The translations under genes were made by a program, and so were the position numbers. A stretch of DNA of 64,000 bases from Moorena sp. SIOASIH (GTDB taxonomy: Bacteria; Cyanobacteriota; Cyanobacteriia; Cyanobacteriales; Coleofasciculaceae). Below the pieces are notes generated by a model. It ran no database searches and was not told the DNA's origin. It saw nothing but the letters and a program-made list of their open reading frames with translations. This document shows, piece after piece, positions 3,445 through 61,172 of the stretch. Every line of letters begins with the position of its first letter. The first letter of the stretch is position 1. Location of the stretch: the NCBI RefSeq assembly GCF_010671925.1, contig NZ_JAAHIH010000001.1, forward strand, positions 741,053 through 805,052, given 5' to 3'.

Positions 3445-3762
3445 GAATTAAGAATTAAGAATTAAGAATTAAGAATTAAGAATTAAGAATTAAGAATTAA
3501 GAATTAAGAATTAAGAATTAAGAATTAAGAATTAAGAATTAAGAATTAAGAATTAAGAATTAAGAATTAAGAATTAAGAATTAAGAATTAAGAATTAAGA
3601 ATTAAGAATTAAGAATTAAGAATTAAGAATTAAGAATTAAGAATTAAGAATTAAGAATTAAGAATTAAGAATTAAGAATTATGCATTCTGTATTCTGTAT
3701 TCTGCATTCTACATTCTGCATTCTACATTCTGCATTCTTAATTCTAAATTCTACATTCTGAC
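3445..3762. repeat. Long (GAATTAA)n heptamer array of about 34 units, followed by (CATTCTG/CATTCTA)n, ending at the GGCCAAAAGGCCACGCTACGCGAAC core (3781-3805).
   Basis: Read directly from the sequence. Confidence 0.95.
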
Positions 3763-3794
3763 AGACAACCTTAAACCTTGGCCAAAAGGCCACG

Positions 3795-5129
3795 CTACGC
3801 GAACAACATGTGAAGGTGTTCTAAAAAATACTGACGATATAAATTACAACAGAGTGTGACTTGATTTCTGTGAACACTCACCAAACCCATACTCTGTAAC
3901 TTATAGATACTGATTGGATCTAATTCAACTCCCCTATCTGCTGTAACCACGTGTTTAAGAGTAGTAGCTAAATCAGGATTTTCCCTGAGTACACTTAAGT
4001 GTTGCCGCAAATAGTCACTATAAATTCCCGTAGCAGTAGCTGCTTCAGCCAGTAATTGTTCTAGGCTAATATTCTGATAAGCCAAGTGATAGAGAGCAAG
4101 CTGGACTAATCCCGGATGTCCCCCCACCATATCCATCAGTTTCTCAGCAGCTTCACTATTTGACCAATGTAATCTATAAAGCTGCGCTAACTGCTGGATT
4201 TGCTGTTTGTTAAACTCGGGTAACTTAATCGGTAATCCCACATTAAACGGAGATTGGGAAGTTTCCAGAGCAACATAAATTTCTGTCGAGTAAACCACAA
4301 CAACCCGCAGCTTTCGCCACACCGGTAGTTGTTTAGATTCCTCATGCCAAGAGCGCAATAAGGGTAAAAAATCTTTAGCAGTTTGGGTATGCTCAAACAG
4401 GTGATGAACTTCATCCATTGCCAAAACTAGGGGATGGTCTATTTTTTCTAGGATATGTTCTTGTAAGTAACTCATACAGCTGACCTTACTGCCTAGGTCT
4501 TTATCCCAATAGTCATCCAGTTGGTGGGGAAGCTGGAGTTGGTAACTGACGTTAACACATAACCAGCGCAATAGCCGGTCTAAATTGCTTAAAATGGCGG
4601 TTTCGGCTTGGTCAAAATTGAGGTATACTCTGCGATATTGTTTTTCTCTTGCCTGGTCTAATATTCGCAGCAGCAAAGAGGTTTTTCCTGTCTCTTTTGG
4701 TCCTGTAATCCGGAGCAAACTCCCAGGTTGCTGGATGGCTTGATAGCAAAGCTCTTCAATAGGAGGACGCTTTATATAAAGCTGAGATGGTAGGGGAAGT
4801 GCTCCACTGGGAAATTCAGCAATTTGACGTAGGCATTGACGGCGGTAATATTGCTCAATTATCTCTTGATAGTAGGGAGTAATCGGGGTTGTCTCCAGAG
4901 TGTTCCGGAAGTTGGTCTTGGTGATCGCTTTGCCAAAAATGTCTCCCAGTAATCGCCACAACTTATAGGCAGTCTTTCTGAGGTATTCAGGGCCATAGTG
5001 TGCTTCGATCGCCATATCGCTATAGGTTTTTCCTTCCCAGGCTTGGTGCAGTATCCATTCCTGAAGTGGAGTCAACTTGATTTTCTCAACACTTTTGAGG
5101 ATGTCAAGTACCTGATCAATAGTCATCAC
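3795..5129 (-). CDS. AAA-like-domain ATPase with an N-terminal HTH-like region. Walker A is GPKETGKTSLL.
   Basis: P-loop motif present. Overall layout resembles the cyanobacterial 'AAA-like domain' family (recalled as PF14516). The C-terminal KLQSMGLVSV...LYRQYF motif is shared with the ORF at 44210. Confidence 0.6.
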   Translation of the reverse strand: MMTIDQVLDILKSVEKIKLTPLQEWILHQAWEGKTYSDMAIEAHYGPEYLRKTAYKLWRLLGDIFGKAITKTNFRNTLETTPITPYYQEIIEQYYRRQCLRQIAEFPSGALPLPSQLYIKRPPIEELCYQAIQQPGSLLRITGPKETGKTSLLLRILDQAREKQYRRVYLNFDQAETAILSNLDRLLRWLCVNVSYQLQLPHQLDDYWDKDLGSKVSCMSYLQEHILEKIDHPLVLAMDEVHHLFEHTQTAKDFLPLLRSWHEESKQLPVWRKLRVVVVYSTEIYVALETSQSPFNVGLPIKLPEFNKQQIQQLAQLYRLHWSNSEAAEKLMDMVGGHPGLVQLALYHLAYQNISLEQLLAEAATATGIYSDYLRQHLSVLRENPDLATTLKHVVTADRGVELDPISIYKLQSMGLVSVHRNQVTLCCNLYRQYFLEHLHMLFA

Positions 5130-5744
5130 TAACAGTTCCCCAATATCTCAAACGACACTTTAGCGGTTTCTAACAAGGCAGACAATTAATTTAGGTTGAT
5201 TGAGTGATTAAACTGGCTACACTTGCTAATTGACAAATACATACTATTATGTATAGTGCTGACATGCCTATCAAATGGGTGTCTTGGGATAGTTGACAAA
5301 TAACTTATTTAATGGTAATCATTGGTATTTAGGTAGATTTTCTAGGGAATTGGCGGTTAATTGAGTGGGTTAATTGGATAAATTTCCAGCAGATTGGGTC
5401 AATAGTGTAGCCAAATCGTAAAAGCAATTGGCTACATTTTTGTGTTGACGGTAGAGGGTACTATCGCCACAATGCTATATGTTGGTCCAAAAAATAGAGC
5501 TTGTCTGCTAAATACATAGGTCGAGATAAGTCGCTTGGTAGAAATATTGGTGGTTTACTGTTGATGGCTCACTGTTAGCACTCAACGGTAAACGGTCAAG
5601 GACTAATAGTTTAACGACTAATAGTTGATCTTTATTTACTACCATCAATTAATAAGCAGGCAAGTTTTTGGTGTGACTCTAAAAACTATGGAATGGCCAG
5701 GCATTAATTTAAATAATTAAATATAATTTTGCAGATAATTTTGT

Positions 5745-10315: not shown

Positions 10316-10777
10316 TTAGCCTCCTGGAATTGTTTTAATAGTTAGTTCTTGGGGTTGTTGTGCTTGATGGGGATGGCTATTTCCAGTGTAAACTTTCAGC
10401 TTCTTGAAAAGTTGGCGACCCAGAGAGTTTTTAGGTAGCATACCCTTGACAGCTTTCTCGATAATTCTTTCCGGTATACGTGCTTGCAATTGGGCAAAGG
10501 TTTCTGTCTTCATACCCCCAGGACGACCGGAATGGCGGCGGTATAGTTTTTGGTCCCGTTTTCTGCCAGTTACCATAACTTTTTCGGCATTGACAACAAT
10601 CACGAAGTCACCAGTATCCATGTGGGGAGTGTAAGTAGGTTTGTTTTTCCCCCGCAGAATGATGGCTATTTCACTGGCTAGTCGTCCTAGACGCTGGTTG
10701 GTGGCGTCTACAACGTACCACTTTTTTTCGATTGAGTCTTTAGTTGGGATGTGGGTTTTTTCCATCGGTTCAATCAA
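10316..10777 (-). CDS. rplM: 50S ribosomal protein L13.
   Basis: Translation contains [17 protein letters not shown]. Confidence 0.93.
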
Positions 10778-10968
10778 TATCAGGTTTACGGTTGGTTTTA
10801 AAGATTGTTCGCGTAGGGTGGCCTATTGGCCAAGCTTCACAGGTTGTTCTTGCCCAGAGAGCCCTTGTCGGTTAGGTTGACAGCCTAAAACGTTTACTAT
10901 TGACAGATTAAAGGTTTAATGTTATATACCTGTAAAACTAACCTTAAACATAGTTACCCCTGTAACCT

Positions 10969-11805
10969 TCAACCGGTCAATTGAGGTAGTATAAATTTGG
11001 GTTGGGTATCATACCATATTTCTGGGGGGAAGGGGCATTCTGGGTAGCCAACCCGTAGCAAGCACAAGCCTTTGGGTGGGGAAGCGTATTTCACCTTGTC
11101 CCGCTGTTGGTTAACCCAGATGTCAGTAAACTGTTCTGGGGTTAGCTTCCCTATTCCCACTTGTACTAGCATTCCTACCAACAGACGCACCATACCATAT
11201 AGAAATCCGTTAGCTTGGATTTCTATATGAATAAATGGTCCGTTGCGGTAACATTCGGCTGCTTGCACATTTACCCAGGAATGCGATCGCCCCGAGTTGC
11301 TTCGGTGAAAGGCTGCCAAGTGATGCTTACCCAGAAGTGGTTTTAAGGCTGCCTGGATCAGGGATTCATCAAGGGGAGCTTGATAATAGTGCCAACAAAA
11401 GGGTTGCACAAACAAGTTAGGGCAGGCGTCGGTATAGATTGTGTATCGATAACGACGCCAGATGGCACTAAACCGAGCATGCCAGTCTGGTGATACTAAT
11501 GCTGATGCTCGGACTAAGATATCCTCTGGCAGTCTACTATTGAGTAAGGCGGCCCAGCGATGGGCTGGTATGGGACCTGTGGCATTAAAATGAGCGACTT
11601 GGGCAGCAGCGTGAACCCCTGTATCAGTACGACCAGCACCATATAGGGTTATGGCTCGCTGTTGCACGGTGGAGAGAACTGTTTCGATTTCCGACTGAAC
11701 ACTGCGATGCTGGGGTTGTCGCTGCCAGCCATAAAAGTTATTACCCAGGTATTGAATAACCAGGGCAATTCGCTGGATAGCTTTAGCATCCTTGGCAGAC
11801 ATCAT
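10969..11805 (-). CDS. truA: tRNA pseudouridine(38-40) synthase TruA.
   Basis: GAGRTDTGVHAAAQVAHF catalytic-Asp motif. Position between rplQ and rplM matches the cyanobacterial operon. Confidence 0.88.
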   Translation of the reverse strand: MMSAKDAKAIQRIALVIQYLGNNFYGWQRQPQHRSVQSEIETVLSTVQQRAITLYGAGRTDTGVHAAAQVAHFNATGPIPAHRWAALLNSRLPEDILVRASALVSPDWHARFSAIWRRYRYTIYTDACPNLFVQPFCWHYYQAPLDESLIQAALKPLLGKHHLAAFHRSNSGRSHSWVNVQAAECYRNGPFIHIEIQANGFLYGMVRLLVGMLVQVGIGKLTPEQFTDIWVNQQRDKVKYASPPKGLCLLRVGYPECPFPPEIWYDTQPKFILPQLTG

Positions 11806-35995: not shown

Positions 35996-36120
35996 TTTTT
36001 AGTTAATCCGACGGAAAGCCCCGCGCTGTAATCTTCGATTCAGCTTCGGGATGATAGTCGGGTCGGGGTTTAAGCAATTCAATACTTATTATTTGACTTT
36101 TATTATGTTAAAATAATAAC

Positions 36121-37389
36121 ATGAGTTTAACAATGAACTACACTTACCGTATTTATCCTTCGGCTGCTCAACAAGAATTAATGTTGAGATGGTTAGAAAC
36201 TTGTAGACGACTGTATAACCGTTGCCTACGAGACTTAAAAGACTGGATCAATAGCAGAAAGTGTCAAGTAGATCGTTGCTCCATTGACCGGGAATATATC
36301 ATGTCTGCTGATATTCCTTTCCCGGGTTACATGGAACAGAAGAGACAGTTAACCCAATGGAAGAAAACCGACCCTCAACTCAAGGCTGTACATTCTCAGG
36401 TGACACAAGATGTGGTTAAGAGATTGCATAACTCTTGGGAAGCATTTAAACAGAGAGGGCATGGTTTCCCAAGGTTTAAAAAGTACGGTCGTTATCAATC
36501 CTTTTTGTTTCCTCAGTTTCAGAAGTCACCCTTTGTCGGCAATCAAATTAAACTCCCGATGATTGGGTGGGTCAAGATTAACTTACATCGATATATCCCG
36601 ACGGGCTTCAGGGTTAAAGGGGTCAGAGTGGTTTCAAGATGTCGAGGGACAAAATGGTTTGTTGTTATTACTATCCAAGCCGATGTATCTGTTCCTGATA
36701 CTCCGTCCTACGGTAGAGCTATTGGGGTGGATGTTGGGTTAAATGACTTTTTGGCAACATCAGATGGCTTGAGAATTCCTAGATCCAAGTTTTTTGTAGA
36801 CTTACAAAGCGAGCTTAAATTGCTGCAACGTAGAGCATCCAGAAAACAGAAAGGGTCTAAAAATTGGGAGAAAGCACAAATTAAAGTTTCACGATTACAC
36901 CACAAAATTGACAACACTCGCTCCGATTGGCAATTCAAAGTCGCTCATGCTCTTTGTGATCAAGCCGACTCTATTTTTGTAGAAGATATTGATTACCGAG
37001 TCATGGCAAAAGGGTTTCTTGGGAAGCATTCCCTAGATGCAAGTTTTGGTCAATTCAGAGAGTTATTGAAATGGGTCTGTTGGAAAAGAGGGAAATTTTT
37101 GGCCACAGTAGACCATCGGGGAACCTCTAAACAATGTCCTAAATGTGGGGCCGAGTGGGATAACAACCTGTCAATCCGTTGGCATACTTGCACAGAATGT
37201 GGATATTCCAATAACCGAGATGTTGCTAGCGCAGAAGTGATTCGTAATCGTGGAATTGAAAAGTACCCAAGGACAATTGGGGAAAGGAAACCGCCTGCTA
37301 TTGGCGTACTGTCGGGGATTTTCAATCTAGATAAGTGCTACGCAGGAATTCCCAATTGTGAGATTGGGAAGCCCGCGCTGTACTCGTAG
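36121..37389 (+). CDS. tnpB: TnpB (OrfB_IS605) RNA-guided endonuclease-family protein with an intact RuvC triad and Zn ribbon.
   Basis: Candidate RuvC triad residues sit in GVDVGL (Asp), FVEDIDY (Glu) and NRDVASAEVIRNRG (Asp). Zn ribbon is CPKCG...CTECG. The N-terminus YTYRIYPSAAQ is TnpB-typical. Confidence 0.85.
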   Translation: MSLTMNYTYRIYPSAAQQELMLRWLETCRRLYNRCLRDLKDWINSRKCQVDRCSIDREYIMSADIPFPGYMEQKRQLTQWKKTDPQLKAVHSQVTQDVVKRLHNSWEAFKQRGHGFPRFKKYGRYQSFLFPQFQKSPFVGNQIKLPMIGWVKINLHRYIPTGFRVKGVRVVSRCRGTKWFVVITIQADVSVPDTPSYGRAIGVDVGLNDFLATSDGLRIPRSKFFVDLQSELKLLQRRASRKQKGSKNWEKAQIKVSRLHHKIDNTRSDWQFKVAHALCDQADSIFVEDIDYRVMAKGFLGKHSLDASFGQFRELLKWVCWKRGKFLATVDHRGTSKQCPKCGAEWDNNLSIRWHTCTECGYSNNRDVASAEVIRNRGIEKYPRTIGERKPPAIGVLSGIFNLDKCYAGIPNCEIGKPALYS

Positions 37390-37505
37390 AGTCAGCGTCG
37401 GGAGGATGTCACGTTTTGATATCAGTGAGTGGGATCACATCTCAAGGGAACCTGGTTAAGGCAATGGTTATGGGATCATCCATTGTAAGTTGGCTTAAGG
37501 CTTTT

Positions 37506-37545
37506 GTAATGCGATTAGCCCGAAGGGCGTTGGCTAGCGAACGCA
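37506..37545. repeat. 40-bp palindromic unit GTAATGCGATTAGCCCGAAGGGCGTTGGCTAGCGAACGCA, copy 1.
   Basis: Exact direct repeat of 37603-37642. Its inverse copy is at 27606-27642. Confidence 0.85.
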
Positions 37546-37602
37546 TCTTGATCACGTTGGTTTAGCAAATAGTGATGGGATCATGAAGAAGTTCAGACGG
37601 TA

Positions 37603-37642
37603 GTAATGCGATTAGCCCGAAGGGCGTTGGCTAGCGAACGCA
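37603..37642. repeat. 40-bp palindromic unit, copy 2.
   Basis: Identical to 37506-37545. The two copies are separated by a 57-nt spacer. Confidence 0.85.
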
Positions 37643-38221
37643 ACCAAGCTTCAGGGAGTAAAGGAGGGATCCCATGCATCATGCCTGCATAACCATTTTT
37701 GAATTCAAAATGCCAAATTCAAAATTCAAAATGAATAGCTTTATAATTTTGATTTTTTGACACCCAATACAAGCAAATTAATTCATTAATGTGGTATTTT
37801 TTGTAAGTATTCAGAATAATGCTTACAATTTAATTTCTATTAAGCTGGCTTCTTTGGGGTTAATTCTAAGAATTCTGTCACTGTACCAACTTTCCAACCG
37901 TTGGCTTCTAGTTGTGCTTTTTTTCCTAGCTCCATCCCACTAGACCTCTCCAAAAACTTTAGACATCTCCAATAATCTCTAATCGAGTCACAGCAATCAA
38001 ACTAAGCGGGTCAACAACTTATTGATGAAACCACCAGTGCTTTAGATAACCGCACCCAAAGCATTTTTTTAGTACAGTAGAGAACCTTTGAGTAACTGCT
38101 TAATTAGGAAGGGTTATTTGCCAATTTGATGGCTCGACAAATGGCTTAGAAAATTAATTATGAAACCATGAACTATCGCTTTTGGGGCAAATCATACCTT
38201 AATTCAGCAACACCAAATTTC

Positions 38222-40972
38222 TCAATTGCGCAGAATCAACCGTTGCCGATGAACATGCAACAAACTAAACTCCCGCTGCGCCACCTGGTCCAACATATAA
38301 ATAATATGCTCTGGTCGCAACATGGTGCCATCATTCAAACAACTCCCGACATACCGCAAAACCACCCCAGATTCCGCAACCTCCTCTTCACCATCTTTAG
38401 GTCTTTGGGATTCCATCAACTCGAAGTCAAATAAGCGATCGCATAAATTCACCAACTGCTTCTTACCCGACTTCGTAAACCGTTCCCACCAAATTTCCTT
38501 ACTACCCTTAATCGCTTCAATCCAACCCTGCCAGTCTTCCCAAGACACCGATGACATTACCTCAACTCGAATCAAATACTCCGCCTTTTCCAACAGCTGA
38601 GTTCCAGCAGGTTCCTTCAAATCCACTCCCTCAACCCCATACACCGGAATCTCTTCAGGCAACTCAGACACCAGCCTTTCCCTAAACTCCTCAACTGGCA
38701 TTTTCTCAGTTAACTCAAACTCCACAATCTCCCCACTACTAGAGGCTCCCAAGGGCAAAGCATTAGCAATCATAATCCGAGCATTAGCCCGAAACCCCCC
38801 ACTATAGCGAATTGGTAGTGACGCTCGTCTTACTGCTCTCTCAAACAGACTTGCCAAATCCAGATGACCCAACAAGGTCATATCCCCCAACTTCCCAAAC
38901 CAAACCCGCAGCCGCTGATCCTTATTAGTATTGGGTTTAAAGTGACCAGCAAATTGCGGAATCTGCGGCGGGTCAATCACCACATTATGACCAAAATCAA
39001 TCCCACACACACCACAGTGAGAACACCCATCAAAGGAACAATCCGGTACTGTTGCTGCATCTAACGCCCGTTGTAAATCTTCCTTGAGCCAATTCTTATC
39101 AATTCCCGTATCAATATGATCCCAAGGCAAGGGAGCATCAAGGGCGTTAAGGGTTGTTCGCGTAGCGTGGCCTTTTGGCCAAGGTTGAAGGGTTGAAGGT
39201 TGAAGGTTATTTGGTTGAAGGTTATTTGGTTGAAGGTTAGACGGTTGCTCTGAACTTTCAACATTCAACCTTCCAACTTGCAACTCTTCTACACCCGCCA
39301 TCACATTCCATTCGCCACTTTCTACTTGGCGATATTTCCAGGTCAGACCTGATGAAGCGATCGCATTTTCCCAAGCAGCAAATGCCCGATCCAAGCTTTC
39401 CATCCAGGCATCCATCCCTGCCCCCAATTCCCAAGCACGGCGCACCACCGCACTTAAGCGTCTGTCACCCCGTCCGACAAAATCTTCCATGGCCGAAATC
39501 CGAACATCGGTGTAATTAACCTTCACCCCCCTGATCTGACCAAATACTTGTTTGAGCAATTCCTGCTTGCGTTTAAACTCCGAAGTCGATACGGAATGCC
39601 ACTGGAATGGGGTGTGAGGTTTTGGGGTAAAATTAGAAACAGTTATGTTAAACTTAAGGGTTTTTCTGCCTTTAGCACGGCACTCCTGCTGCAACCAACG
39701 CACCGTTTCCGCAATCCCCAACACATCCGCATCCGTTTCACCGGGCAAACCAATCATAAAATAGAGCTTGACTTTCTCCCAGCCTTGCTCAAATGCCGTC
39801 TTTACTCCCCTGAGCAGTTCTTCATTAGTCAGTCCCTTATTAACAATATCCCGCATCCGCTGAGTTCCTGCTTCTGGGGCAAAGGTCAAGCCACTCTGCC
39901 GATTTCCCCCTAGGATATTGGCAATATTTTCATCAAAGCGGTCTACCCGCTGACTCGGTAGGGACAAGGAAATATTCTGATCCTTAAGACGATTTTTGAT
40001 TTCCATCCCCACCGCTGGTAGAGCCAGGTAATCGGAACAACTCAGGGATAGAAGGGAAAACTCGTTATACCCTGTAGCACGCATCCCTTGTTCAATAGCT
40101 TCCACCACTTTTTCTGGTTCCACATCCCGCGCTGGTCGAGTCAGCATCCCAGGTTGGCAGAACCGACAACCGCGAGTACAGCCCCGCCGCACTTCGATCT
40201 TGAGTCGGTCATGAACCGTTTGGATATAGGGTACTAGTCCAATAGCATAGGCAGGCATCGGTGTAGCCACACGCCGCAAAATCCGCTTCGGCACATCAGG
40301 GCGGTTGGGTTTAACTGAGCCATCCTCAGTCATATCATAGAATTGGGGGACATACACCCCTGGTATCTGAGCCAAATCCAGGAGTAACGCTTCTCGACTT
40401 AAGCCAGCTGCTTTGCCTTCTTCGATTACTAAGCCAATCTCTGGCAACAATTCTTCCCCATCGCCAAGATCAACAAAATCTAAGAAATCAGCATAGGGTT
40501 CAGGATTCGATGTAGCCGTTTGTCCACCTGCAAAAATTAGGGGGATTTCCGATATATCAAACTCAGCACGGTCTTTCCAGGTAAGGGGAATTCCTGCCAA
40601 ATCCAACATTTCCAAGATGTTGGTTGCCCCTAATTCATAGCTAAGGCTAAAGCCAATAATATCGAAATCTGTCAGAGGTCGCCGATTCTCGACAGCAAAC
40701 AGAGGGGTTTGAGTGGAACGCAATTTAGCTGCCAAGTCTGGCGCAGGTAGATAGGCGCGATCGCATAACTGCCTAGGTTGACAATTCAATATATTGTAGA
40801 GGATGATATGGCCTAAGTTAGAAGCGCCCACTTCATAGATTTCTGGATAAGTCAATACCCAGCGTACCTCAGCTTCTTCCCAAGGTTTATGGACTGCTCC
40901 CAACTCGTTACCTAAGTAACGGGCTGGTCTGTTGATGTCTGCTGTTAGTATTTCCTCTACACTGATTCCCAT
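38222..40972 (-). CDS. B12-binding/radical-SAM protein fused to a C-terminal DUF2344-like domain. I recall this as the TIGR03960/TIGR03936 type. It carries an in-frame repeat-element insertion.
   Basis: Radical-SAM cysteine triad CTRGCRFC. 916 aa. The internal segment ...SSEQPSNLQPNNLQPNNLQPSTLQPWPKGHATRTTLNA is encoded by a heptamer array plus the GGCCAAAAGGCCACGCTACGCGAAC core. Confidence 0.7.
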   Translation of the reverse strand: MGISVEEILTADINRPARYLGNELGAVHKPWEEAEVRWVLTYPEIYEVGASNLGHIILYNILNCQPRQLCDRAYLPAPDLAAKLRSTQTPLFAVENRRPLTDFDIIGFSLSYELGATNILEMLDLAGIPLTWKDRAEFDISEIPLIFAGGQTATSNPEPYADFLDFVDLGDGEELLPEIGLVIEEGKAAGLSREALLLDLAQIPGVYVPQFYDMTEDGSVKPNRPDVPKRILRRVATPMPAYAIGLVPYIQTVHDRLKIEVRRGCTRGCRFCQPGMLTRPARDVEPEKVVEAIEQGMRATGYNEFSLLSLSCSDYLALPAVGMEIKNRLKDQNISLSLPSQRVDRFDENIANILGGNRQSGLTFAPEAGTQRMRDIVNKGLTNEELLRGVKTAFEQGWEKVKLYFMIGLPGETDADVLGIAETVRWLQQECRAKGRKTLKFNITVSNFTPKPHTPFQWHSVSTSEFKRKQELLKQVFGQIRGVKVNYTDVRISAMEDFVGRGDRRLSAVVRRAWELGAGMDAWMESLDRAFAAWENAIASSGLTWKYRQVESGEWNVMAGVEELQVGRLNVESSEQPSNLQPNNLQPNNLQPSTLQPWPKGHATRTTLNALDAPLPWDHIDTGIDKNWLKEDLQRALDAATVPDCSFDGCSHCGVCGIDFGHNVVIDPPQIPQFAGHFKPNTNKDQRLRVWFGKLGDMTLLGHLDLASLFERAVRRASLPIRYSGGFRANARIMIANALPLGASSSGEIVEFELTEKMPVEEFRERLVSELPEEIPVYGVEGVDLKEPAGTQLLEKAEYLIRVEVMSSVSWEDWQGWIEAIKGSKEIWWERFTKSGKKQLVNLCDRLFDFELMESQRPKDGEEEVAESGVVLRYVGSCLNDGTMLRPEHIIYMLDQVAQREFSLLHVHRQRLILRN
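39155..39245. repeat. Composite repeat (core GTTCGCGTAGCGTGGCCTTTTGGCC plus a (GGTTGAA/GGTTATTTGGTTGAA)n array) lying inside the radical-SAM CDS.
   Basis: Read directly from the sequence. It is in frame with no stop codon. Confidence 0.9.
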
Positions 40973-50568: not shown

Positions 50569-51166
50569 TATTTCTCTTGCCTATATGGAGTATTGCTTGT
50601 TATTGCAGTAACAACTGATCAAAGTATCCAGACTGAGTGTTTGCGTTCCCGTAGCGGCTCTGAAAGAGCATCGCGTTTGCTTTCTATCGCGTAGCGTGAC
50701 CTTTTGGGCAAAGCCCGACGCTGCGCGAACGGTCAATCCCACAGCTGCTCCGTTGAAGTATCCGATTCAGCAACTATAGCGCTAATTAAAGATTAAGCGG
50801 CTCATAACTATAGCGCTAGTTTATATAACTTCAGTCCAATTAATTCACTATCGAAAATTTCAACAATTTTGGAGATGATAGGATGCTCCTGATCAGCCGC
50901 TTTGGATCAGCATTCCCTGTAGCCCTGGTTAATCTGAATTAACAAAACTTTACATCAATGGCTACCACCTATAGGTGTATAATAACTAAAATTATTCTTT
51001 CGACAAGGAATAATAGTCTCAAGCCATTATCAATCAAACTGATTAGCTGTTACTAGGTTAATCAAAACTAGGTTAATTAATACTAGGTTAATCCATGGCA
51101 AGAAATTGATTAACCTTAAGTGCCTAAGTAAAATCACCCGACCCAGGAGCAGGAGAAACCATTGCC

Positions 51167-59894: not shown

Positions 59895-60147
59895 GGTTAG
59901 AAGGTTATTTGGTTGAAAGTTATTTGGTTGTTTCCCTTGGGCGTCCCTTGTAGGGTAGGTTGAAGATTAGAGCCTTAACAACTCAAATCTGGATGTATAA
60001 CCAGCTAACTTTCAACCAGCTAACCTTCAACCAGCTAACCTTCAACCAGCTAACCTTGGCCAAAAGGCCACGCGTGCGCGTTCAACCAGCTAACCTTCAA
60101 CCAGCTAACCTTCAACCAGCTAACCTTCAACCAGCTAACCTTCAACC
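59895..60147. repeat. Composite repeat: (GGTTATTTGGTTGAA)n, then (CCAGCTAACCTTCAA)n, then the core GGCCAAAAGGCCACGCGTGCGCGTTC (60057-60086), then (CCAGCTAACCTTCAA)n. It sits immediately upstream of fmt.
   Basis: Read directly from the sequence. It is the inverse orientation of the copy at 39155-39245. Confidence 0.9.
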
Positions 60148-60170: not shown

Positions 60171-61172
60171 ATGCGAGTTGTATTCTTTGGTACTCCCCAA
60201 TTTGCTCTACCTTGTTTGGAAGGTTTGTTGAACCATCCTGAATTTGAGGTGGTGGGTGTGGTGACTCAGCCAGATAAGCGTCGAGGACGTGGTAACCAGC
60301 TGATTCCTTCCCCAGTGAAATCAATAGCATTAGCACATCAACTACCAGTTTGGCAACCGCAGCGCCTGAAAAAGCATAGGGAAACCCTAACTCAGCTAAG
60401 GCAGGTAAAGGCTGATGCTTTTGTCGTGGTTGCCTATGGGCAGATTCTCTCCCAAGAGATTTTGGATATGCCTACGGGAGGTTGTATCAATGTACATGGC
60501 TCAATTTTGCCTAAGTATAGGGGAGCAGCTCCGATCCAGTGGTGTCTTTATAATGGTGAAGCCCAAACGGGCATCACAACGATGTTGATGGATGCTGGAA
60601 TGGATACTGGAGCAATGCTCTTGAAAGCATATACACCAATTAGACTATTGGATAATGCCGAGGATTTGGCACAAACTCTGAGCAATTTGGGAGCTGATTT
60701 GCTGATTGAAACCCTCCTCAAGCAAGAGTTACAGGACATCCAACCAATTCCTCAAGATGACTCATTGGCTACCTATGCACCACTGATTCAAAAGTCAGAT
60801 TATGGCCTAGATTGGTCACGCTCTAACTTGGAGTTACACAATCAGATCCGGGGATTTTTCCCAAACTGTGTCACCTCATTTCGGGGTAAATCTCTGAAAA
60901 TCAGTGCCACTGTTCCCTTAGATTCGGCTTACTTATCCGAGTTGCCTTCACAGTTAAAAATGCGATCGCAGGAGTGGTCTAATCTTGATGTTGGTTCAGG
61001 TCGTCCTGGAGAAGTTGTCAAGATTGCCAAGGCAATCGGTCCAATTATTCAAACTGGAAATGGACTGTTGTTGTTGCAGCAAGTGCAATTAGCTGGCAAA
61101 CGTGCTCAATCTGCTTGGGATTTTGCCAATGGTATGCGTTTAGAAGTAGGAGAAGTTCTAGGTAATCCTTAG
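60171..61172 (+). CDS. fmt: Methionyl-tRNA formyltransferase.
   Basis: Translation contains [19 protein letters not shown] and [16 protein letters not shown]. Confidence 0.9.

Follow-up and report, generated by a model that had tools for sequence, protein, structure and literature searches.

A 24-nt two-hairpin repeat read in frame within a Moorena radical-SAM gene, a probable very small mobile element tolerated in a variable loop

The stretch of DNA analysed here, called the window below, is a 64,000-nt segment of the genome of Moorena sp. SIOASIH (contig NZ_JAAHIH010000001.1, positions 741,053 to 805,052). Its minus strand carries a gene for a radical-SAM protein into which a short tandem array and a dispersed 24-nt repeat, hereafter the element, are inserted without breaking the open reading frame (ORF). 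The features found at this locus are the following:

38222..40972 (−), host gene, encoding a 916-aa B12-binding radical-SAM protein (TIGR03960) fused to TIGR03936/DUF2344; Pfam and NCBIfam, above curated cut-offs
39157..39180 (−), 24-nt element GGCC-AAAA-GGCC-A-CGC-TAC-GCG-AA, i.e., GGCCAAAAGGCCACGCTACGCGAA; exact dispersed copies
39181..39247 (−), tandem array of 15-nt period (CAACCNNNTAACCTT / CAACCTTCAACCCTT), 4.5 units, encoding (QPxNL)n; Tandem Repeats Finder
39149..39156 (−), remainder of the split array unit (CAACCCTT), 3' of the element; sequence
39253..39277 (−), short array of the same repeat in inverted orientation (GTTGGAAGGTTGAATGTTGAAAGTT, encoding VGRLNVES); allele comparison
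39155..39274 (−), residues 567-606, encoded by the repeats, the only long stretch of low confidence in the structure model; AlphaFold2

Read on the minus strand, positions 39149-39277 are GTTGGAAGGTTGAATGTTGAAAGTT-CAGAG-(CAACCGTCTAACCTT)(CAACCAAATAACCTT)x2(CAACCTTCAACCCTT)CAACCTT-[GGCCAAAAGGCCACGCTACGCGAA]-CAACCCTT-AACGCC. Each unit of the array joins a 7-mer to an 8-mer (CAACCTT+CAACCCTT), for which Tandem Repeats Finder gives a period of 15 nt; what a previous sequence-only reading of this DNA had described as a heptamer array is thus a 7+8 repeat, and it is because of this period that the array keeps the frame. The array at 39181..39247 also contains the target of the element, AACCTT^CAACC (the caret marks the point of insertion), with four empty AACCTTCAACC sites. 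In the host ORF, the element is translated in its frame 3 as (W)PKGHATR(T), in the protein context ..QPSTLQP-W-PKGHATR-T-TLNALD.., the full stretch being EELQVGRLNVESSEQPSNLQPNNLQPNNLQPSTLQPWPKGHATRTTLNALDAPLPWDHID. Five of the six frames of the element are open, the sixth reading F-A-stop (TAG); since it is 24 nt long and open in five frames, its insertion adds 8 residues without a frameshift. A 25-mer that includes it, GGCCAAAAGGCCACGCTACGCGAAC at 39156..39180 (−), has further copies at 3780 (+, exact) and 10807 (−, 2 mismatches), which brings the window to three copies (2 mismatches or fewer), where 100 shuffles give an expectation of 0. The sequence, its translation and these copies agree with the previous description of a dispersed core and its array lying in frame inside the 916-aa ORF.

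The family assignment of the host gene is clear, with 599.9 bits for TIGR03960 (cut-off 462.3) and 183.9 bits for TIGR03936 (cut-off 71.9), and the protein is 100% identical to a Moorena (Moorea) sp. SIOASIH protein. The location of the insert, initially given as the boundary between the radical-SAM and DUF2344 halves, has to be corrected: positions 2-547 of the TIGR03960 model align with aa 7-548 and positions 555-600 (of 605) with aa 612-658, while DUF2344 begins at aa 687. It is thus within the C-terminal portion of the TIGR03960 model, and not at the junction of the two halves, that the repeat interrupts the protein, in a loop predicted to be disordered and about 80 aa ahead of DUF2344. 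Over 860 flanking codons, nine other Moorena alleles show 96.7-97.9% nucleotide identity to the window allele, with dN/dS values of 0.13-0.20 in the comparison of the window with each of them; given these values, the gene can be regarded as functional, and codon comparison indicates that it is under purifying selection in every strain compared. A neighbour-joining tree of the allele flanks (the PAL row being left out) is star-like, with 1.8-3.2% divergence.

The 15 Moorena orthologues measure 882-971 aa, and their length differences all fall within the repeat segment. The window ORF is 34 aa longer than the shortest allele (882 aa), close to the 35 or so added residues first estimated, and the length polymorphism that was to be looked for at this site is indeed there. 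Ten alleles were read as DNA (the window and nine others): the codon stretch from GEWNV to PLP is 90, 177, 183, 192 (window), 237, 246, 303, 342, 348 or 357 nt long, each length difference is a multiple of 3, and every allele is an open reading frame. The number of array units varies from 2 to about 20 among Moorena alleles. Of the two alternatives offered by the sequence-only reading, a tolerated insertion or a recent disruption that happens to stay in frame, these open alleles, indels in multiples of 3 and low flanking dN/dS speak for the first. A phase-variation switch was considered and rejected, no allele being frameshifted. One has to keep in mind that the window comes from a metagenome-assembled genome (MAG) and that short tandem repeats are error-prone, so that the element or the array could have been misplaced during assembly. 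We consider such an artefact extremely improbable: independent isolate assemblies have the element in the gene (M. bouillonii PNG, and P0013 on an 8.2-Mb contig), as do several MAGs and metagenomes; allele P0004 was found on 6 contigs and P0011 on 8; and all alleles are open.

Comparison of the alleles reveals three sites in the gene that hold the element in some alleles and lack it in others. The insertion point is AACCTT^CAACC every time; both orientations and three reading frames are represented. In the first class, it sits in the middle of a unit (CCT T^CA ACC) and reads W-PKGHATR-T; this class groups the window and three metagenome alleles, LAGH14 being in the class, and in the metagenome alleles the copy has diverged to GGCCAAAAGGCCACCCTACGGGAA. 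Excising the 24-nt GGCCAAAAGGCCACGCTACGCGAA from the window allele yields CAACCTT|CAACCCTT, which is the intact unit of the closely related, element-free SIO3G5 allele. In the second class, the insertion lies at a unit junction (CTT^CAA) and reads GQKATLRE, or GLSATLRE when the hairpin loop is TTTC; there is one copy in SIO2I5, one in P0009, four in M. bouillonii and five in SIO4A1, the latter as tandem 39-nt (15+24) units. In the third class, found in five alleles, the element is in reverse orientation at GGTTG^AAGGTT, the reverse complement of the target, in the upstream short inverted array, and reads FAKRGQKA; the corresponding site GGTTG^AA of the window (between 39266 and 39265) is vacant. 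The filled sites of P0013 and P0012 read GGAAGGTTG[TTCGCGAAGCGTGGCCAAAAGGCC]AAGGTTG, the exact empty site of P0010 reads GGAAGGTTGAAGGTTG, and in these class 3 copies the sole in-frame stop of the element, TAG, has become AAG. Exact 24-nt differences between filled and empty sites are thus observed among alleles whose flanks share about 97-98% identity, and no target duplication was found in any of the three insertion classes among the Moorena alleles compared. With its 15 alleles, its three independent classes of insertion and its exactly matching vacant sites, this unusually clean series establishes what the unit of a very small cyanobacterial repeat is, which target it occupies and that this target is not duplicated.

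The explanation that we favour, with a probability of roughly 80%, is the tolerated insertion of a very small mobile element, similar to the small dispersed repeats (SDR) of other cyanobacteria, which would have spread as a discrete unit at AACCTT^CAACC without target duplication. The 24-nt two-hairpin repeat, dispersed in Moorena genomes, would land as a unit at this sequence, which arises wherever two units of the 7/8-nt CAACCTT-type tandem repeats meet; in the radical-SAM gene, such repeats fill a surface loop as an in-frame 15-nt array of variable copy number. The array and the 39-nt array-plus-element unit would then grow or shrink by slippage or unequal exchange. We infer that the polymorphism reflects insertion and that the element moves by a hairpin-recognising, target-specific and duplication-free route.

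The structure predicted for the host protein is in keeping with such tolerance. An AlphaFold2 model built from a 117-sequence alignment (which replaced a model from 60 close homologues with a predicted local distance difference test score, pLDDT, of 52) has a mean pLDDT of 91 and a predicted template modelling score of 0.91, and its pLDDT falls below 50 solely at residues 547-552, 567-606 and 862-866. Residues 567-606 run from VGRLNVES through the array and the element, and this repeat-encoded loop is predicted to be disordered; the protein would tolerate insertions because the loop is disordered and without length constraint. From WKY to LPWD, the window protein has 67 aa; the same stretch covers 33-122 aa within Moorena and 17-122 aa among 116 cyanobacterial orthologues, where its sequence is not conserved, and only 8-12 aa in 107 distant homologues (33-39% identity). 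Peptides encoded by the element occur in Moorena proteins only among the 116 cyanobacterial orthologues, and three relatives at about 77% identity have the QPxNL repeats without the element; a homologous linker in unrelated cyanobacteria, which would have refuted the sequence-only reading, was not found among these orthologues, and the segment is lineage-specific.

Alternatively, the loop itself may be selected and functional, for instance as a tunable spacer or an interaction segment, its polymorphism being then adaptive. The frame is kept in 15 of 15 alleles, and other cyanobacterial lineages retain expanded repeat-derived loops at the same position, two points in favour of such a role; its sequence, its length (33-122 aa) and even the frame of the element vary, however, between alleles that are about 97-98% identical elsewhere, the segment is predicted disordered, 8-12 aa suffice in distant homologues, and the same element is found in unrelated proteins. 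We consider this explanation highly improbable. Regarding these other lineages, the same loop holds different translated repeats in other filamentous cyanobacteria (P0017, P0035, P0048, P0102; P0022, P0037, P0045, P0053), among them (SGVRSQE)n, which corresponds to 21 nt or three heptamers, and VGAGLADNV..QNPP, which resembles a translated hairpin or an element of the miniature inverted-repeat transposable element (MITE) type; it seems that repeat DNA generally tends to collect in this loop. Another repeat was also noted in the M. bouillonii PNG allele (L097), which has a second 24-nt family, CCCTACGGGAACGCCAAAGGCGAA (PYGNAKGE), in frame in the same loop; this family has the two hairpin types in reversed order and recurs in many loci beside the first one.

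We then looked at the element beyond this gene by scanning one genome per species (185,579 species) with the pattern GGCC-N4-GGCC-ACGCTACGCGAA, which returned at least 120 loci; the counts that follow refer to the loci listed. Among them, 119 belong to five Moorena species and hold at least 185 copies of the element, the remaining one being a chance match in Micromonospora. The 5' flank of the copies is AACCTT (T at −1 in 99%, T at −2 in 93%, C at −3 in 87% and C at −4 in 88%) and the 3' flank CAACC (C at +1 in 80%), the same target as in the allelic series. Neighbouring copies are most often spaced 39 nt apart. Searched against proteins, the translation of the composite repeat gave 20 matches, all the named ones being Moorena, and no cyanobacterial match to the element was found among PLSDB plasmids; from these searches, the element is likely absent outside Moorena. 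In a second context, it is nested in the loop of TGACC-TT^T-GGTCACGCTACGCGA elements, themselves within GCGAT..CGC. Some copies stand in unique, array-free sequence (L011, L074 and L117). The loop of the first hairpin is AAAA (83 copies), TTTC, TTTG, TTTT, AATA, TATT or TATG. These variants include the reverse-complement pairs AAAA/TTTT and AATA/TATT (185 copies, L009-L128, among the matches listed), which suggests that the loop may have inverted inside its perfectly palindromic stem.

Such a distribution could also arise without a transposing unit, if ectopic recombination, gene conversion or template switching carried the 24-mer passively from one to another of the many nearly identical CAACCTT-type arrays and local slippage followed. 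Indeed, the majority of copies are within such arrays with AACCTT/CAACC flanks, runs of 39-nt period (5 copies in P0012, 10 in L092, 12 in L022) show real local amplification of units made of array and element, and identical array units, e.g., CAACCAGCTAACCTT, occur at unlinked loci. Passive spread fits less well with the array-free copies found in genes for TPR proteins and TnpB and in an open frame of 1242 codons that has no annotation, with copies nested in the loop of related hairpin elements, or with the reverse-oriented insertion, which is flanked by only about 9 nt of repeat on either side and whose empty counterpart differs by exactly 24 nt. Because copies exist in unique sequence, homology between arrays is not the sole route, and we regard passive spread as possible, though unlikely, compared with the insertion of a mobile unit.

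Beside the copy in the host gene, the window has three others:

3780..3803 (+), second exact 24-mer, after heptamer arrays; its reverse strand gives the last codons, F-A-stop (TAG), of the AAA_35 ORF 3795..5129 (−)
10808..10831 (−), diverged copy (loop AATA, G15C), between a 153-aa ORF, 10316..10777 (−), and a 278-aa ORF, 10969..11805 (−)
60058..60082 (+), 25-nt variant GGCCAAAAGGCC-ACGCG-TG-CGCGT-T at CCTT^CAACC, in a non-coding 15-nt array, 59999..60147

The first of these directly follows 34 perfect GAATTAA and 12 ATTCTGC heptamers (3445-3760), and the AAA_35 ATPase gene (444 aa) ends in ..MLFA*, its final two codons and TAG being provided by the 24-mer. The ORFs around the diverged copy are taken, from their sequence, to be rplM (10316..10777) and truA (10969..11805). 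The array of the 25-nt variant is upstream of a 333-aa ORF, 60171..61172 (+), which we assume to be fmt on the same grounds.

As single-stranded DNA, the element is predicted to fold into two adjacent hairpins, GGCC-N4-GGCC and CGC-TAC-GCG, with −6.5 kcal/mol and z = −2.7 relative to shuffled sequence. The two-hairpin layout is predicted in all the variants folded (CCC-TAC-GGG, the 25-nt ACGCG-TG-CGCGT with an alternative 5-bp stem, and the TTC-loop), and one clean compensatory pair was found, from CGC/GCG to CCC/GGG, in a metagenome variant. Covariation from fuzzy matches (up to 4 substitutions) was dropped as evidence, these matches being contaminated by half-elements such as GGTCACGCTACGCGAA. 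Half-elements of the same family also form an inverted repeat around a GGGC/GCCC hairpin, GTTCGCGCAGCGTCGGGCTTTGCCCAAAAGGTCACGCTACGCGA, at 50670..50740 (−) in the window. A double hairpin that is predicted to be stable relative to shuffled sequence could work at the RNA or DNA level (mRNA stability, ribosome pausing or a protein-binding site), its translation being incidental; copies do lie between co-oriented genes, e.g., the pair 10316..10777 / 10969..11805 (putative rplM and truA), and repetitive extragenic palindromic (REP) sequences are known to act so (PMC3733652). We deem this very unlikely, as the element occurs in both orientations inside genes, has no terminator-like T run after it, and gave no family match in an Rfam scan of the whole window.

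The element is read in frame in many other proteins. Among the loci listed, which are a biased sample, 42 of 204 copies of the 24-nt form are within open frames of at least 300 codons, against 0 of 18 for the 25-nt variant; it is suggestive that the 24-nt form, unlike the 25-nt form, is found in long open frames. All six frames of the element occur within open frames of at least 400 codons. We found at least 12 other host reading frames in Moorena, real hosts being confirmed by Pfam:

CurM-like polyketide synthase (PKS; KS-AT-KR-ACP-ST-TE) of M. producens 3L, element in the ST-TE linker, following a (QPSNL)n run
nonribosomal peptide synthetase (NRPS; L024), element in reverse orientation
Mg-chelatase H / CobN (ChlH/CobN), element between DUF3479 and the CobN domain
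CheA-like hybrid kinases, one or three copies between Hpt and HATPase_c
CHAT/TPR and TPR proteins, element in frame
STAND NTPase, ten tandem copies
TnpB, element in frame

In the CurM-like PKS (L083:3-5648, aa 1574 of the open frame), where ST stands for sulfotransferase and TE for thioesterase, the 24-mer is read GQKATLRE. The sequence-only reading had called translated repeat insertions unusual; within Moorena, reading this element in frame is not, and repeat elements that are translated are already known from the Rickettsia palindromic elements (RPEs) (PMC10969869, PMC3733652).

How could so small a unit move? Single-stranded DNA handled in trans by an IS200/IS605-type HUH (Y1) transposase is our leading guess. 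IS200/IS605 HUH transposases characteristically insert DNA 3' of a fixed tetranucleotide and leave the target unduplicated; the Moorena element, with CCTT directly 5' of it and no target duplication, fits this type of insertion. IS200/IS605 elements, with tnpA and tnpB or with tnpB alone, are present in Moorena. At locus L089, a 24-mer lies 6 nt past the stop codon of an IS200/IS605 tnpA (5060..5551, −; divergent tnpB); in a second Moorena species, the JHB copy of this insertion sequence (IS) (L129 2501..3080) bears at the same end a GGTTGAA array with two 25-nt variants in it. Eight residues (RQSRRCAN), derived from a degenerate relative of the element, are inserted in frame in the L089 TnpA and absent from six homologues. 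We take this tnpA association as a lead only towards the HUH route. In the window itself, a TnpB gene (OrfB_IS605 / Cas12f-like TNB) without tnpA is found at 36121..37389 (+), 830 nt from the 3' end of the host gene; the ends of this TnpB element (36000-36120 and 37390-37440), compared with the 24-mer, show no resemblance to it. The flanks of the TnpB gene share a hairpin-like motif (aagcccCGCGCTGTA..) that is unrelated to the 24-mer, and the LAGH14 allele also has a TnpB neighbour. In its boldest form, this scenario would make the 24-mer the smallest transposable unit described, a two-hairpin single-stranded DNA moved in trans to CCTT^C by a Moorena HUH transposase and shaped in length to colonise coding sequence, which we consider quite unlikely; if true, linker-length diversity would be continuously generated across the proteome, including in megasynthases such as at the CurM-like ST-TE linker.

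Several points weigh against the mobile-element explanation and its transposase. The tnpA association concerns two loci and could equally mean that the IS targets these repeats, and the element is far below the size of any known IS200/IS605 derivative, with no space for guide sequences. Hairpin covariation is thin, stem 1 being the self-complementary GGCC and stem 2 nearly invariant. As the loci listed were chosen by the exact 24-mer, the copy numbers, the comparison of the 24- and 25-nt forms and the absence from other genera are not rigorous; finally, the copy number of short-repeat arrays is prone to misassembly in MAGs.

Among known repeats, the closest are the SDRs. Elhai et al. 2008 (Genome Res 18:1484) reportedly described SDR1-8, of 21-27 nt, in Nostoc punctiforme and its relatives. 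This Nostoc study is cited in PMC3116915 and PMC5861425, and the passage of the latter devoted to it summarises it as reporting no SDR outside Nostocaceae. The Moorena element and the SDRs share their size class (24 vs 21-27 nt), a high copy number, embedding in heptamer-type tandem repeats, a hairpin-based predicted structure, nesting in related elements and a vicinity to HIP1-like GCGAT..CGC contexts; in both cases, mobility is argued from presence/absence at orthologous sites, with no known transposase. They probably differ by their sequence, and they differ by their lineage, Moorena being a non-heterocystous marine filament, and the present case adds a defined target, AACCTT^CAACC, and an in-frame allelic series in one conserved enzyme. 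Such elements are thereby extended beyond Nostocaceae, into a genus studied for its natural products, where the same element is in frame in PKS and NRPS linkers.

RPEs, which are selfish palindromic repeats, occupy unrelated functional genes in frame; they are translated, and the proteins seem to tolerate them at surface positions (PMC10969869, PMC3733652). The Moorena element shares with them the in-frame insertion in functional genes, without their size or their single conserved peptide: an RPE has a length of about 100-150 bp, and its conserved peptide has 30-50 aa, whereas the Moorena element contributes 8 aa from 24 nt, occurs translated in each of the six frames and sits on a variable array. 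REPs within genes have been catalogued as well (PMC3733652). Like the Moorena element, REPs and REPINs, which are mobilised by RAYT tyrosine transposases, are short hairpin repeats in high copy number, some of them inside genes, and a GTAG is present on the reverse strand of the Moorena element (TTCGCGTAGCGTGGCC..), but 3 nt from the hairpin stem; unlike REPINs, the Moorena element is a single unit and not an inverted pair, with about one fifth of the sampled copies in long open frames. A RAYT gene flanked by the element was not found, the only adjoining Y1 transposase being that of an ordinary tnpA-tnpB IS with the element on one side only. IS200/IS605 elements and their miniature derivatives likewise insert 3' of a short sequence without duplication and have hairpins at their ends, but these derivatives are far longer than 24 nt and their guide sequences are separate from the hairpins. 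A MITE was rejected, the element being 24 nt long (against 70-300 bp) with neither terminal inverted repeats nor target duplication.

The array itself recalls the short tandemly repeated repetitive (STRR) heptamers and coding variable-number tandem repeats of filamentous cyanobacteria, (QPxNL)n being also variable in number with heptamer-like units, and heptamer arrays are abundant in the genome. It differs from these in that its 15-nt period keeps every copy-number change in frame, and in that the array is also the landing site of a dispersed element. A length of 24 nt and an array period of 15 nt would together allow selfish DNA to persist in essential-looking genes. In principle, such a phenomenon was known before. 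The present case brings a new lineage and resolves well a very small mobile repeat that is compatible with codons, and with the allelic series, the defined target and the copies in megasynthase linkers, the question of how such elements move becomes directly testable.

Two further observations concern the surroundings of the gene and its product. Another small hairpin repeat, GCGATTAGCCCGAAGGGCGTTGGCTAGCGAACGC, has two copies in the window, at 37508..37550 and 37608..37648; it resembles an insertion in HIP1-like GCGAT|CGC, and similar GCGAT-TGACCTTTGGTCACGCTACGCGAT-CGC elements elsewhere carry the 24-mer in their loop. As to the function of the host protein, a sequence search of the PDB matched the generic radical-SAM core only, and a literature search on DUF2344/TIGR03960 returned nothing useful. 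With the predicted model, Foldseek against the PDB relates the N-terminal half to the B12-radical-SAM protein MgmA and to the RNA methylthiotransferase MiaB, and the DUF2344 half to the pseudouridine synthases TruA/Pus1 (E = 6e-7, TM 0.56 on target), which hints at a possible RNA substrate for this uncharacterised fusion enzyme.

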